A stretch of 64,000 nt of DNA from Planctomycetota bacterium (lineage in GTDB: Bacteria > Planctomycetota > JAJSAM01 > JAJVHW01). The position numbers were made by a program, and so were the translations under genes. Shown here one piece after another: positions 8,099 to 41,993 of this stretch. Location of the stretch: assembly GCA_965248445.1 (NCBI GenBank), contig CBDFJG010000001.1, positions 320,001 to 384,000 of the forward strand. Reading direction: 5' to 3'. Each line of letters starts with the position of its first letter. Position 1 is the stretch's first letter. The notes below the pieces were generated by a model. The model had not been told where the DNA came from. It searched no databases and saw only the letters and a list, made by a program, of their open reading frames with translations.

Positions 8099-10105
8099 CT
8101 ACTTGTACCTCAGCCTCGTGCCGACATCGTTGACGCTGCAGACCTGCACAGCATGTTCGGTCACTCCGTCGTACCTGACGGAGAAGTAGAACGGGGCCGA
8201 CCCGATCGGGAACGTCCCGAGGTCGATGTCGCGTGCGAACACGCGCAGCCGGCCCCTCGCGAAGTCGAACTCGACGAACCACACGTCTGGCGGCTTCGCC
8301 GCGCCCGGCGGGTCCGGGCGGACGATCCTCACGCGCATCGGGAGGTTCTGCGTGACGTTCGCGAGCTTGGGCACGATGACGTCGTACGTGTTCCCGGGCT
8401 CGCCCATGCGAAGGTGGATGGCTCCCGTGATGGAACTCAGTTCCGGCAGCGCGGCAATCAGACTCAGCGAGTCGTTGCCCGGGCCGGCGGGGATCTTGGC
8501 CGTGATCCTCTCGATCGCCAGTGCCGGGTCGACTCTCGGCTGCATGCCGGTGCGGAAGGACCCGCCGACCAGGATGACGTCGCTCGCCACGACGAAGGCG
8601 CCCCTGACCACACGGAAGTGGAGCAGGTCGCCCGGTCCCGACGGCGGGAGCGTGTCGGTCCAGTTGATCACGACGATCGAGACGCGCGCCTTGGACGAAG
8701 GAGCGCGCGGCGGCTTGACCGTCCTCCGGAAGTTGCCGGCGCGGACTGAGAAGCTGGTGCCGCGCCGGTTCGGCTTGAGGCCGTTGGGCAGGCTCTGGGT
8801 GAGCGTCCCGTACTCCACCGTCATCGGCTGTGTGAAGTCCACGGTCTTGTCGCCCAAGTCGAGGCAACCGCTGAGGCGCAGTTTCCCGCCGATCGTGCGG
8901 ACGGACCTCAGGGCGAGGAACCCGTTCGGCGGAACCGGCAACGGACCGAACACGTGTTCGTCCGCGCCGTCGTTGGGGTTCGTGCCGTCGACGTCCACCT
9001 CAGGGCCGTCGTCGACGCCGCCTGAGTCCGTGTCCGCCGTGTTCGGGTCGGTGGCACCGTGCCCGTGGCTGGCGCCCGCGCTGTCCTCGCCGTTCGACTC
9101 CTTGTCATCCCTTAGCGTGTCGGCGTCGGTGTCGGCGTCGTTCGGGTTCGTCGGGGCTCCGTCAAAGGCATTTCCGCTTCCGCTGGTTTCGGCACCGTCG
9201 TTGATGGTGTCACTGTCGGAATCCGCGTTGCTCGGGTCGGTCGGATCGCCCGGCCCGAACGGGTCGCTGACACCGCTGATCTCATCGTCGTCATCGATGT
9301 TGTCCGCGTCGGTGTCGGCGTTGTTGGGGTCGGTGACGAAACCGTCGGCACCTGCGACCACCTCTTCACCGTCGTTGATCGTGTCGTTGTCCGAGTCCGA
9401 GTCGGTCGGGTCGGTCTGAGCTCCGCCGAACGGGTTGAGCGCACCGCTGATCTCATCGTCGTCATCGATGTTGTCCGCGTCGGTGTCGGCGTTGTTGGGG
9501 TTCGTGATGAAGCCATCAGCCCCTGCAGCCACCTCTTCACCGTCGTTGATCGTGTCGTTGTCCGAGTCGGCGTCGTTCGGGTCGGTGGGCCCGAAACCCG
9601 TCAAGTTGCCTGCCGAGTCTTTACCCGCGATCTCGTTCGTGTCCGCGAGTCCGTCGCCGTCGCTGTCGGGCGCAGTGACGGTGAACACACAACTCCAAGC
9701 GTGCGCATTGACGGCGAAGTTTGTGAACAACTGCACGCAGTACGTCCCCGGGCCGACAGACACGTTCGTGTTGGACGACGTGCCGGTGGTATTGGGATTG
9801 AACGAGCTGCAGGCGTCAAAGCCCCACGTTCTGGTCTCGCCGGCGCCGCCCGTGATACTGAAACTGATGTTCGTGATCGTGTGATTGACGGGCACGACTA
9901 CGTTGTACGTGTCCTGATTCGTGGTCGGCGTTCCCGGTAGCGTCCCCCGCACCGTGTTCGTGCCCCCGGTCATGGTGATGTTCGTGACGAAGCCGTTCGG
10001 CAGGTCCCCGTCGACGGCCTCGTTGTAGTTGTCTGCGTTGGCAGTCGCCAACGGCACGAGCAGGAACAGACAGAGGGGCAGAATCCCCTTGATGAAGCTT
10101 CTCAT
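8099..10105 (-). CDS. exported protein with bacterial thrombospondin type 3 (Ca-binding) repeats
   Basis: Signal peptide MRSFIKGILPLCLFLLVPLATANA; repeats DSDGDGLADTNE, TDPNDADSDNDTINDGEEV, NPNNADTDADNIDDDDE. Confidence 0.82.
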   Translation of the reverse strand: MRSFIKGILPLCLFLLVPLATANADNYNEAVDGDLPNGFVTNITMTGGTNTVRGTLPGTPTTNQDTYNVVVPVNHTITNISFSITGGAGETRTWGFDACSSFNPNTTGTSSNTNVSVGPGTYCVQLFTNFAVNAHAWSCVFTVTAPDSDGDGLADTNEIAGKDSAGNLTGFGPTDPNDADSDNDTINDGEEVAAGADGFITNPNNADTDADNIDDDDEISGALNPFGGAQTDPTDSDSDNDTINDGEEVVAGADGFVTDPNNADTDADNIDDDDEISGVSDPFGPGDPTDPSNADSDSDTINDGAETSGSGNAFDGAPTNPNDADTDADTLRDDKESNGEDSAGASHGHGATDPNTADTDSGGVDDGPEVDVDGTNPNDGADEHVFGPLPVPPNGFLALRSVRTIGGKLRLSGCLDLGDKTVDFTQPMTVEYGTLTQSLPNGLKPNRRGTSFSVRAGNFRRTVKPPRAPSSKARVSIVVINWTDTLPPSGPGDLLHFRVVRGAFVVASDVILVGGSFRTGMQPRVDPALAIERITAKIPAGPGNDSLSLIAALPELSSITGAIHLRMGEPGNTYDVIVPKLANVTQNLPMRVRIVRPDPPGAAKPPDVWFVEFDFARGRLRVFARDIDLGTFPIGSAPFYFSVRYDGVTEHAVQVCSVNDVGTRLRYK
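9271..9568. repeat. intragenic tandem duplication, period 171 bp (57 aa)
   Basis: 'caccgctgatctcatcgtcgtcatcgatgttgtccgcgtcggtgtcggcgttgttgggg' starts at both 9271 and 9442 and continues nearly identically. Confidence 0.85.
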
Positions 10106-10367
10106 GACGCGACCTCCCATGGTGCTGCGTCGAACGGCGCACTTCCCTGAGCACTGACGGCCACCCACCACGAGCGGCGCGCTCCCCTTGCTGCGCCCCA
10201 CGCAGACCGTCAAGCCCGGCGACCCGCGTAGAGGCACGAGGATATCGAACTTGCGACCGGGTCGCAACGGGGTGAGCGACTCCGGTCACGGATCGCTGTC
10301 GCTCACCACGGCAGGTGGCGGAAGTCGCCAGATCCGACGCCGTGCAGGACGGCTCGCGCGGGACCTT

Positions 10368-11462
10368 CTACCGCCTCGACGGACCGTGCGGGTCCGTGAC
10401 CGGTACCTCGCCCTCCCAGTCGACGCCCTTCTTGCGGCCTTCGCGGATGTGCTCGCGGGCGTCCTTCGTGCCGGGGGCGTGCGCCTTCATCGCTGCCGCG
10501 AGCGCCTTCTCGAGGGAGTCGGCGTCGGTCTTCGCGGTCTGGGCGAGCACCTTGCCCTCGAGTCCGAACGCATCCGGTTGCACGATCACGAGCGCTGCGT
10601 CCGCAGCAACTTCCGCGATCTTCTCCAGGTCCTTGCGTTTCGTGGTCTCCGCCCAGACGAGGCGGCCGATGAAGTCGTCGGCCCACGCGAGCGGACGCAG
10701 TTGCTTCTCGAGTGCCTCACGCGCCGCGTCCGTCTTGGCGACGACGATGGCCGTCGGCAGCATGTCGCACGCGGCGACGTTCAGACCGAGGCGCACGTCC
10801 TCGACGTACGGCATGGTCCCGGGGCCCGTCTTCCCCTTCTGCTTCTTCGCGTACCGCGCCGCGATGTCCGTCAACGTCGCAACCATCTTGGTGACGTCCT
10901 CGCCGCCGGGGCTGTCCGGCCGTCCCCGCCGAGGACGACCGTCCCCGAGCGCCATCTGCGGTGAGCGTCCGGCGCGCGTGAGCTTGGTCTCGCCGTCGGG
11001 GGCGAGGATCGAGAAGACGGTGTTCTCGAGCTGGCCGCTACGTCCGGTGAAGACCGTCGCGAGGAACTCGGCTTCGTCCTTGTCCTCGTACGTCGAGAGA
11101 CGCGCGCACACGAACTCGCGCGAGACCGCGACCACCTCGGGCTGGGACAGGAAACTCCTGTCCATGTTCTGCTTGCCGGGTCACCAGATCCCCGAGATGC
11201 CGTGGCACTGGGGTGCCGCGGACAGCAGGAAGATCGGCTTGCCCGTCCGCTCCGCCTCGGCCTTCGCGCCGTCCCACGTCCCGAACCACTGCACCAGCGT
11301 TCGCTCGGCAGCGGCCTCGCCGCTTCCGGCAACGGGGCCTTCGGGGCGAGGCGGGCCGCCTCTTTCGCCTCCCGGCGGGCCGCCGCGGTCCTGCGCAGAC
11401 GCGACGGACGTCGCGGCGGCGAGGCACATCACCAGGATCAAGCTGCTCTTCATGCGGGACAT
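10368..11462 (-). CDS. exported thioredoxin-like protein with in-frame TGA (putative selenoprotein, U94)
   Basis: ORFs 11181..11597 and 10368..11165 are in one frame separated only by TGA 11181-11183: KPIFLLSAAPQCHGISGIW-U-PGKQNMDRSFLSQPEVVAVSREFVCARL; signal peptide; RBS GGAGGAG; ends in TAG. Confidence 0.82.
11145..11163 (-). promoter_or_regulatory. putative bacterial SECIS element
   Basis: mRNA GGACAGGA-GUU-UCCUGUCC: perfect 8-bp stem, loop G 26 nt 3' of the UGA. Confidence 0.72.
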
Positions 11463-11578
11463 GGACTCCTCCGAGGCCCGAAGTCTCCATGGCGGTCCTT
11501 GCGCAGTTCTTACGCACGATCGACCGGGCGGGAGGTCGCGACGGGCACCGCCCCCACCGGTCCTGCGATACTGCCGCC

Positions 11579-12763
11579 ATGCGCAACCTCCGGGCATTCG
11601 CGCCGGCCGCGCTGGCCGGCGCTCTCTTTGGTCTCCTCGGGACCGTCGTCATCGCAGCAGACGACGAGACGGGCGGTGCGCTGCGGGGAGACGTCGGTGA
11701 TCGGGACGGGGTCACCAAGGGAGCAGAGGTCGCGGCCGGACCGCTCGGGTGGAACCCCGACTTCGGCGAACACGTGGCGACCACCACGACCGACGAGCTC
11801 GGCAAGTTCTCGCTCGAAGGCGCTCCGCTCGGGCCGATCGACGTCTGGGTGCGGCCCAAGGACGGCAAGTGGAAGTTCTCGATCCGCATGATGCACCCAG
11901 GGGTGAACGACCTCGAGGTGAACGCGACGCCGGTGCGCGAGTACCCAGATGACTTCGGCGGATTCGGCGACGACAAGGGTGAACCGCGCACAGGCGTGGT
12001 GCTCGACAACAAAGGGAAGCCGCTGGCCGGCGCAGCGGTCGGCGCATCCGGAAGCGGCCTCGCGTGGACCGTCACCGATGCGGACGGGAAGTTCGCTTTC
12101 GAGAAGCTCGCGAACGGAGACCGGTTGCTCGTGCGCGCGCGCGGCTTCAAGGACAAGATCGTCGAGTTGAAGAAGAAGAAGAAGGTGAAGGTCAAGCTGG
12201 GCGTCCCCAAGCCGACCACGGTCCTCGTCGTCAACAAGGCCAAGGAGCCCGTCGCGGGCGCATGGGTCACGCTCGGGGACGAAGACCGCATGCTCGGCAC
12301 TGAGGGCTTCAGTCAGTTCCCGCCGGCAGACCGACTCGTCGGCGGCTGGACGAACGCGGCGGGCGAGGTGCAGATCCTCTGGCCGGGAAAGAACACCAAG
12401 TCCCTCGCCACGGCGTACGCGCACGGGTTCGCGCCCACGCGCGGCAAGTTCACTGCGGCGAAGCGCACGACGCTCACGCTCGAGCCGGCCAAGCCGGTGC
12501 GCGCGATCGCCGTCGTGAAGGAGTCTGGCTACACGCTCAACGACGTGTTCGTGGGCGCGCTCCACAAGAGCTCAGGCGGCGTCGACACCATCTCCGCCGT
12601 GCCGCAGGCCGATCAGCGCGGCCCGATCGTGCTCGGGCGCACCGATCAGAACGGCCAGTGCGTGATCCCCGCGCTGCCACTCGACTCGAAGATGCTCTGC
12701 GTCGTCGGCGAGCAGCGCCGCCACGCGAACGTCACTACGGAGCCGGTCGGAGCGGTCGAGTAG
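11579..12763 (+). CDS. exported carboxypeptidase-regulatory-like (prealbumin-fold) domain protein
   Basis: Signal peptide; repeated G.V.D..G.P..GA.V and TD..GKF motifs. Confidence 0.72.
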   Translation: MRNLRAFAPAALAGALFGLLGTVVIAADDETGGALRGDVGDRDGVTKGAEVAAGPLGWNPDFGEHVATTTTDELGKFSLEGAPLGPIDVWVRPKDGKWKFSIRMMHPGVNDLEVNATPVREYPDDFGGFGDDKGEPRTGVVLDNKGKPLAGAAVGASGSGLAWTVTDADGKFAFEKLANGDRLLVRARGFKDKIVELKKKKKVKVKLGVPKPTTVLVVNKAKEPVAGAWVTLGDEDRMLGTEGFSQFPPADRLVGGWTNAAGEVQILWPGKNTKSLATAYAHGFAPTRGKFTAAKRTTLTLEPAKPVRAIAVVKESGYTLNDVFVGALHKSSGGVDTISAVPQADQRGPIVLGRTDQNGQCVIPALPLDSKMLCVVGEQRRHANVTTEPVGAVE

Positions 12764-41423: not shown

Positions 41424-41993
41424 CTAGTCCGGCGGATGCGGGTGCGCGGCGCGGACCTCGTCCGGCCAGAAGTCCTCGAGGTCGATGCCGAGGCCATCGA
41501 CGGTGCGGTTGCACCACGCGAAGAACCCGCTGATCTGATTGACCCCGACGATGCCCTCGTCGGAGAAGCCGACCGCGCGCAGCGCTTCGACGTCGGCGCG
41601 ACGCATGGCGCCCGGCGTCCGGGTGAGTTTGATGACGTGGTCGATGAGAGCGCGCAGCCGGGGCGTCGTCTCGACGGTCGTCGGATCCGCCTTCAGTCCT
41701 TCCACGTAGTCAGCGTCGTTGCAGTGACCTAACAGGCCCCGCGCGTGGTGGACCACTCAGTAGTAGCAGTCGTTCACATGGCTGACGGTGACGGCGATCG
41801 TCTCCCGCTCGATCATCGTCAGATCGAGCGGCCCGTGCATCACGCCCTTGTAGAAGGTCAGCAGCGCATCGAGCGCGCACGGCACCAGCGAGTGCGCCTG
41901 CACGACGTTGTCGGGCCGGCCGGGCAACCCTGCGTAGAGCGCCGCCAATTCGCCCGTGGCCTGTTCGGGGCCGATGAGGGGAACCCACGCCAT
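41424..41993 (-). CDS. AhpD/carboxymuconolactone-decarboxylase-family peroxidase, selenoprotein (CxxU, U79)
   Basis: ERETIAVTVSHVNDCYY-TGA(41757-41759)-VVHH in frame; KLTRTP, LRAVGFSD, FAW.NR.VDGLG; ends in TAG. Confidence 0.9.
41721..41742 (-). promoter_or_regulatory. putative bacterial SECIS element
   Basis: mRNA GCGG-GGCCU-GUU-AGGUC-A-CUGC hairpin; loop G 24 nt after the UGA; spans the rare codon TTA. Confidence 0.68.

Follow-up and report, generated by a model that had tools for sequence, protein, structure and literature searches.

The VPGUxxT selenoproteins (NF041383/NF041382) are the nearest curated relative of the protein described here, over its first thioredoxin domain (domain a) only (hhalign probability 96.3%, 98 columns). 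In both, V-P-G precedes selenocysteine (Sec), the register from Sec to L-S is identical and a hairpin lies at a comparable distance, and both occur in the same phylum. Their second domain, which we take to be MsrA-like, has its own Cys/Sec site and could not be aligned to the Cys-less second thioredoxin domain (domain b) of our protein. The Trx7/PDZ selenoproteins (NF041199) likewise have a Thioredoxin_7-type N-terminal domain with Sec. The VPGUxxT family is listed with one Sec and the Trx7/PDZ motif as CxxU (PMC13188914). The fold and nucleophile position of domain a are found in the PF13899/PF03190 proteins ERp18/TXNDC12, AGR2/3, DsbH and DsbD-gamma (PDB 1sen, 3ph9, 2ju5, 1vrs, 3ira, 3f9u, 2lst), and the order of a catalytic followed by a non-catalytic thioredoxin domain in PDI and ERp44.

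In our study, a stretch of 64,000 nucleotides from a Planctomycetota genome (the window; contig CBDFJG010000001.1, positions 320,001 to 384,000) was found to encode a protein which differs from all of these. In comparison to VPGUxxT, the Sec94 protein and its homologs have x-W between VPG and U, UxxK in place of UxxC/T, an added Cys86 and a lost cis-proline; the family motif is [VI][PS]GxWUPGK, not VPGUxx[TC]. The match to Trx7/PDZ is weak, occurs in 23 of 36 members and is limited to about 70 residues, and the Pfam scan of the Sec94 protein showed no PDZ domain. Compared with ERp18, AGR, DsbH and DsbD-gamma, the family has Sec for Cys, Lys for the second Cys, an eight-residue loop insertion, no cis-proline, and an extra domain and tail. 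PDI and ERp44 were matched by the predicted model with Foldseek E values of 1.5e-5 to 1e-3, a resemblance and not a membership, but the whole-chain TM is about 0.25 with 9-16% identity, and the Sec94 protein is bacterial, Sec-based and devoid of CxxC.

The earlier note on this DNA did not recognise the protein as a described family, and our searches agree. The best NCBIfam score is 15.9 bits against a cut-off of 300 (NF041199), and 36 members gave only weak matches, to Trx7/PDZ and VPGUxxT selenoproteins. The VPGUxxT model NF041383 (cut-off 275) gave at most 14.1 bits in the nine members scanned and a best E of 0.003 over 36 members, and no VPGUxxT match was present in the source genome at E 1e-10. 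Table 1 of a 2026 catalogue of 119 selenoprotein families contains no C-x7-U or WUPGK thioredoxin family (PMC13188914). The literature search found no description of the family, the families of Haft and Tolstoy 2025 being covered via the review table and NCBIfam. The terms searched were not found in about 4.0 million characters of the large spreadsheet in the BSepDB supplement (PMC13326102), a portion which possibly ends short of the family table, and the passages compared on BSepDB and on deep-Sep (PMC12013277) hold no description of it. Sequence searches of the PDB gave nothing below E 0.2. The family is well supported and apparently uncatalogued. Its parts are as follows.

11466..11472, minus strand: Shine-Dalgarno-like GGAGGAG, read from the sequence, with GGAGG 5 nt upstream of the ATG at 11462.
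10368..11462, minus strand: whole gene, 364 codons plus TAG, with one UGA predicted to be read through (Sec94), from the window translation and homologs in one frame across the TGA.
11394..11462, minus strand: predicted Sec-translocon signal peptide, residues 1-23, with a cleavage-like A-S-A end, from sequence and a hydropathy rule.
11298..11393, minus strand: Gly/Pro/Arg-rich linker, from sequence; some homologs have a haem-c (PSCyt1), EF-hand or LTXXQ-like domain at the same place.
10833..11297, minus strand: domain a, residues 56-210, Thioredoxin_7/DsbH/DsbD-gamma/ERp18-type fold with Sec94, from PF13899 and the model.
11190..11213, minus strand: active-site loop insertion of about eight residues, approximately 84-91, with Cys86 (codon 11207-11205), from the ERp18 gap, the model and the Cys offsets.
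11181..11183, minus strand: UGA, predicted selenocysteine 94, in the motif W-U-P-G-K directly before the active-site helix, from the homolog column and the model.
11145..11163, minus strand: candidate bacterial SECIS hairpin, 8 bp stem and GUU loop, inside the D-R-S-F-L-S codons, from folding, covariation and consensus fit.
10482..10820, minus strand: domain b, residues 215-327, second thioredoxin fold without active-site Cys, from VIA-align and Foldseek on the model.
10389..10466, minus strand: conserved C-terminal helix and W-x4-P-x-T-D-P tail, from conservation, mean-field covariation and the model.

The two predicted open reading frames (table 11; 11181-11597 and 10368-11165, both minus) lie in one frame broken by a single TGA, as had been proposed from the sequence. 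This TGA is codon 94 (11183-11181) and the only one in the 364-residue translation of 10368-11462, and the peptide quoted earlier for the read-through product matches that translation exactly. The gene does end in TAG, an uninformative point: family genes stop in TGA, TAG and TAA 54, 52 and 51 times, respectively. The earlier note names no strand; the gene is on the minus strand, and the plus-strand reading of 10368-11462 gave an unrelated frame and was rejected. The stretch is covered, with zero letter differences, by Logan contigs from three runs of a single sample, which may be the source of the assembly. The proposal that the protein is exported agrees with its predicted N-terminal signal-like sequence, and a hydrophobic stretch precedes the domain in most family loci (169 of 200, against 21 of 410 mature control windows, by a hydropathy rule rather than a signal-peptide predictor). 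Searches for a promoter or same-strand terminator consensus of the gene found none, Rfam gave no match of note, and the plasmid search gave no match for the gene.

At the column of codon 94, TGA was present in all of the 215 homologous loci, which represent 169 distinct cores. They comprise a set of 30, a further 25 and, out of collections of genomes and metagenomes, 160 (the best 80 of 174 and the best 80 of 149), with overlap between the sets. Patterns for scanning the collections were taken from Sec members, which biases those scans towards Sec; the phylum search is less biased in this way. A search with a single protein confirmed none of 49 candidate related loci and a diverse alignment was too variable, but a closer alignment worked. 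Ten further fetched regions, which are weak matches to other Trx7-like genes, were excluded from the column count. Three full-length database proteins (P0171, P0203 and P0240) have Cys at this column, and the residues that follow it in them deviate from D-R-S-F-L-S.

The source genome has selA, selB and selD above the curated cut-offs and a tRNA-Sec by ARAGORN; its selD itself contains an in-frame TGA. A profile search placed the family in 48 of 401 phylum genomes. selA was found in 47 of these 48 carriers against 288 of 401 genomes overall, a comparison cross-read by eye among kin that are not independent. The sole carrier without selA has selB and tRNA-Sec, and among the five carriers labelled outside Planctomycetota four have selA and the fifth has tRNA-Sec. 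Taken together, the TGA column, the covarying hairpin described below and the Sec machinery all agree by comparative genomics with the selenoprotein reading of the earlier note, and recoding of UGA94 as Sec is, on these sequence data, practically assured. Homologs with Trp or another non-Cys residue, halves that are usually separate genes, reads with TGG or TGC and absence of Sec machinery, which that note had named as contrary outcomes, were not encountered.

It has also been considered that the TGA is a true stop, dividing a short exported peptide gene from a separate gene starting at Met100, or else that the gene is a pseudogene, the TGA a sequencing error or the UGA translated as Trp. The downstream half is indeed called as a protein of its own almost everywhere in the databases, and an ATG is kept at codon 100 in 141 of 169 loci. 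However, no ATG lies within 10 codons of the TGA in the other 28 loci, the split would fall inside one folded domain of the model, fused Cys forms exist, the hairpin covaries and the carriers have the Sec machinery. A sequencing error is excluded because the same TGA occurs in 169 distinct loci. UGA is not reassigned genome-wide, since TGA ends most long open reading frames of the source genome (2541 of 3872, a count which includes shadow frames), and it also terminates 54 of 157 family genes, which speaks against reading it as Trp. This group of explanations is therefore very improbable.

The hairpin GGACAGGA-GUU-UCCUGUCC folds as claimed earlier, at -12.7 kcal/mol, and its loop G lies 26 nt beyond the A of the UGA. 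Bacterial SECIS elements are described by a loop of 3-9 nt, a G in the first two loop positions, a distance of 16-37 nt from the UGA and an energy of -7.5 kcal/mol or lower (PMC13188914), and the 3-nt GUU loop, loop G, 25 nt spacing and folding energy lie within these limits. An alternative form has the loop AGUUU with the top pair open. The suggestion that the hairpin uses AT-richer codons stands for AGG and AGT, which are rare in the source genome (4.7% of Arg and 4.6% of Ser codons), but not for TTC, which is its normal Phe codon (96.5%). In the shuffle test the 36-nt piece gave z -3.17 (1 of 200 shuffles), and a 74-nt piece only z -0.93. The hairpin alone is weak evidence because 220 of 2031 ordinary-looking TGA stops of the source genome also pass a loose SECIS rule; it becomes significant through its family-wide conservation. 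Across 54 loci (51 distinct), 93.4% of the stem cells are paired and compensatory two-sided changes occur in seven of the eight stem pairs. This level was reached by none of 500 shuffles, slid controls were at most 61.3% paired, and RNAalifold recovered the same stem; the structure was derived from the sequences also used for testing, which favours it, and kinship inflates the shuffle tests. Support independent of that derivation comes from codon bias: AGT serves as the loop codon in 141 of 154 distinct sequences, while elsewhere in those genes it makes up 11.6% of the Ser codons; AGG precedes it in 104 of 154 and elsewhere makes up 7.2% of the Arg codons. The recoding mechanism is ordinary SelB/bSECIS with nothing unusual in it; the interesting parts are the active-site architecture and the Sec-dominant distribution.

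The AlphaFold2 model (149 sequences; pLDDT 94.2, pTM 0.92) shows two tandem thioredoxin folds in structure searches. The earlier note, with its Thioredoxin_7-like pattern, was right as to the fold, but it overlooked that there is a second thioredoxin domain, that the cis-proline is lost and that the C-terminal tail is conserved. PF13899 scored 27.0 bits, exactly its Pfam gathering cut-off of 27, and 15-22 bits, under the cut-off, on the Cys homologs. The nearest folds to domain a are DsbH, DsbD-gamma, DUF255 and AGR/ERp18 (VIA-align Z 10.6-11.9, rmsd 2.5-3.8 A over 114-128 residues). The TGA falls, as had been predicted, at the catalytic first-Cys column, W-U-P-G-K standing against W-C-G-A-C of ERp18. 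When the family profile was aligned with ERp18 (E about 0.4, used for register only), an eight-residue gap appeared before the first Cys of CGAC. From this alignment, Sec holds the first, nucleophilic position and Lys97 takes the place of the second Cys. The second Cys of CxxC is indeed absent, with Lys at 97 in 163 and Cys in none of 170 sequences. Sec is model residue 39, and the active-site helix starts at model residue 40.

The active-site insertion is modelled as a short beta-hairpin with strands at model residues 30-31 and 34-35. Among 158 distinct N-terminal segments, 157 have a Cys in this loop, at offset -8 from Sec in 152, -9 in four and -4 in one; the remaining segment has none. Since the offsets vary while the Cys persists, the loop Cys appears to shift instead of vanishing. 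Member L167 has His at -8. Divergent members (L074 from G247, and L065, L067, L069 and L070) have the loop Cys at -4 or -9, and U-K-G replaces U-P-G in them. According to a survey from 2009, insertions into the thioredoxin fold are tolerated essentially only after strand 2 (PMC2757866); the insertion of the Sec94 protein lies in the active-site loop itself, unlike that pattern.

The cis-proline is absent as well. None of 425 sequences has Pro at residues 147-149, a region placed by alignment with the related VPGUxxT family, which reads N-N-P-V there. Near-invariant residues are Arg121 (421 of 421), Asn147 (422 of 423), Arg166 (421 of 423), Glu126 and Glu130. Cys119 is present in 415 of 420 sequences, and in DUF255-like genes too; it probably lies buried in the core. 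Cys232 (345 of 425) is dispensable.

Domain b resembles plain thioredoxins (VIA-align Z 8.0-9.3 over model residues 158-276), and hhalign detected no internal duplication of domains a and b (probability 0.7%). The tail region is modelled with pLDDT 95-99 up to model residue 300. Mean-field covariation, on a shallow alignment (Neff of 118 over full-length rows) that overlaps the one behind the model, recovered the expected sheet contacts. Moreover, it coupled the hairpin with the tail (Q85-G351, z 8.5; S90-V347, z 8.0; I89-G342; H87-A335) and the tail with domain a (A131-V353, z 12.1; E146-D357), and according to these couplings domain b and the tail are packed against domain a. This suggests that the tail packs on the active-site insertion, beside the active site, as a clamp, and holding of the hairpin against the tail helix could keep Cys86 away from Sec. 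There is an analogy in ERp44, where the C-terminal tail covers the active site.

The tandem layout raises the explanation that the protein acts on exported proteins as a PDI/DsbC-like disulfide reductase, isomerase or redox chaperone, with polypeptide clients bound by domain b. PDI and ERp44 are the top Foldseek matches, the nearest folds of domain a include DsbH, DsbD-gamma, ERp18 and AGR, and fusions to haem-c and LTXXQ-like domains would agree with such a role. However, the PDI matches, with TM about 0.25 and rmsd above 15 A, imply a different domain arrangement, and the couplings pack domain b and the tail against domain a. Further, the cis-proline, which is tied to polypeptide binding (PMC2757866), is missing in all 425 sequences. 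We consider this role unlikely.

The function favoured here, with somewhat better than even confidence, is that of a periplasmic Sec oxidoreductase in which Cys86 resolves and a DsbD-type relay re-reduces the protein. According to comparative genomics, the in-frame SECIS element would be read by SelB and Sec inserted at UGA94, and the predicted signal peptide would direct the product to the periplasm. There it would fold, as modelled, into catalytic domain a, non-catalytic domain b and a tail returning to domain a. The Sec94 selenolate at the helix N-terminus is very probably the redox nucleophile of this thiol/selenol oxidoreductase and would attack an oxidised substrate. With Lys97 in place of the resolving Cys, Cys86, the residue eight positions upstream that the earlier note had proposed, would be its probable partner, forming a Sec94-Cys86 selenenylsulfide to be re-reduced through the DsbD-type relay. 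In the source genome, a DsbD membrane domain is followed by a thioredoxin domain reading G-K-G-U-I-N-C with an in-frame TGA (G000:C1:397943-398936, minus strand), and this DsbD thus appears to be itself a selenoprotein.

The weakest step is the substrate. A specific one, probably small, anionic and oxidised, is tentatively favoured over general protein disulfide exchange, because the cis-proline is missing, hairpin and tail would form a lid, and Arg121, Glu126, Glu130, Asn147 and Arg166 are nearly invariant; such specificity may hold, at slightly less than even chance.

This step overlaps with the explanation of a GPx-like selenoperoxidase for periplasmic hydroperoxides, resolving via a Cys outside the CxxC position. 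Glutathione peroxidases surround Sec with a tetrad that includes Gln, Trp and Asn. They have the tetrad Asn in WNF(S/T)KF and a resolving Cys outside the motif (bioRxiv 10.1101/2025.11.24.690144). The Sec at the first-Cys position without a CxxC partner would suit this reading, as would the near-invariant Asn147, which by eye occupies the tetrad-Asn place. But the motif is UxxK and not UxxT, with Thr in only 1 of 170 sequences, and the model is devoid of the helix-strand insertion after strand 2 common to GPx and Prx (PMC2757866). No glutathione peroxidase was among the fold matches listed, and kinship may nonetheless exist. A peroxidase is regarded as improbable.

Binding of a soft metal or metalloid by Sec94 and Cys86, as in a periplasmic chaperone, sensor or scavenger, has also been weighed. 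The cis-proline may prevent metal binding by CxxC (PMC2757866) and is absent here, His338 is conserved (381 of 419) on the helix coupled to the Cys86 hairpin, and one fused domain is weakly like Pfam Metal_resist. On the other hand, the Metal_resist match is under its cut-off, His338 is substituted in 12 full-length members which retain Cys86, and metal-handling neighbours do not recur across lineages. The chance of this role is judged to be small, about that of the peroxidase.

Beyond the redox role preferred here, it can be speculated, as a doubtful extension, that the family is a new periplasmic selenoenzyme class whose thioredoxin fold encloses a pocket for one specific substrate, a small anion of sulfur, selenium or a metalloid. 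CxxC would be replaced by a Sec-x7-Cys ring formed on the inserted hairpin, this hairpin would be locked as a lid by the tail, and the chemistry would depend on selenium so much that Cys forms are rare late reversions. If true, Cys versions as late reversions would be the reverse of nearly all known selenoprotein families. Two Cys members are nested inside starred Sec clades of the unrooted trees, which suggests, from sequence comparison, Sec-to-Cys reversion. For independent reversions the trees need two changes, and a single Cys clade was not rejected (p-AU 0.284, unrooted). Full-length Cys homologs were also sought through their N-terminal region; this search, weak with only 16 candidates, gave nine matches and no new Cys member. 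Further Cys members are possibly contained in an atlas cluster (54 proteins of 373 aa), so the description 'nearly always Sec' is provisional.

Most record titles of the family name Planctomycetota, some name Verrucomicrobiota, and there is one bin each of Omnitrophota and Alcaligenaceae. In a 331-genome sample from the phylum of one Verrucomicrobiota carrier, the family was found only in that carrier, as two tandem copies. An early stop occurs downstream in at least 5 of 169 cores (L051, L072, L075, L098 and L180). Databases name the downstream half 'hypothetical protein' or 'thioredoxin family protein', and, among the 150 best cluster representatives, only 3 cover the mature protein in full, while the others start after the UGA or are fragments. 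The read-through gene corrects this systematic annotation error and adds to the selenoprotein catalogue the family of the 48 carriers. The surprise is tempered by the ordinary recoding and by the many such exported selenoproteins that planctomycete genomes evidently hide.

The neighbourhood gave no conserved operon that would point to a substrate: neighbours recurred only within groups of apparent close relatives, and the top 25 clusters do not include the window's own neighbours. These are a divergently transcribed exported protein with a CarboxypepD_reg domain (11579-12763, plus strand) and, downstream, a protein of Asp-rich repeats for which Pfam gave no match (8099-10267, minus strand), neither being among the commonest homolog neighbours. 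The N-terminal fusions are lineage-specific (planctomycete haem-c domain, EF-hands, LTXXQ-like module) and fit a periplasmic role; haem-c, EF-hand and LTXXQ-like domains are promiscuous in planctomycetes. Loci L029, L030, L033, L128 and L179 have an N-terminal PSCyt1 (CxxCH) cytochrome c fusion and are predicted haem-c selenoproteins.

Other candidate selenoproteins were observed in the same searches. In the window, the gene at 41424-41990 (minus strand), presumably AhpD/CMD-like from its motif, reads C-Y-Y-U (CxxU) in frame through a TGA at 41759-41757 and is its second probable selenoprotein. The source genome has 56 TGAs with coding-like codons on both sides, of which by eye roughly 25 are at Cys positions of thioredoxin-fold or AhpD-like proteins, and these therefore point to a large hidden selenoproteome. 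Two Trx7/PDZ (NF041199) genes above the cut-off in this genome have two TGAs each (L256, G000:C3:1610654-1611823; L257, G000:C3:1539388-1540575), and L256 reads U-D-P-U, that is UxxU, where the catalogue gives CxxU. Other Trx7-like genes (L077, L078 and L080, also L076 and L079) have a TGA at the nucleophile column and similar hairpins, with the motifs W-U-P-A-C, T-T-U-S-A-N and N-C-U-P-G-A in this group; NCBIfam gave no match for L078 and weak matches only for L080. In the VPGUxxT members L087, L090, L091 and L095, a second TGA lies in the C-terminal domain, within M-T-U-Y-W or M-G-U-F-W, and is accompanied in each by a separate hairpin.
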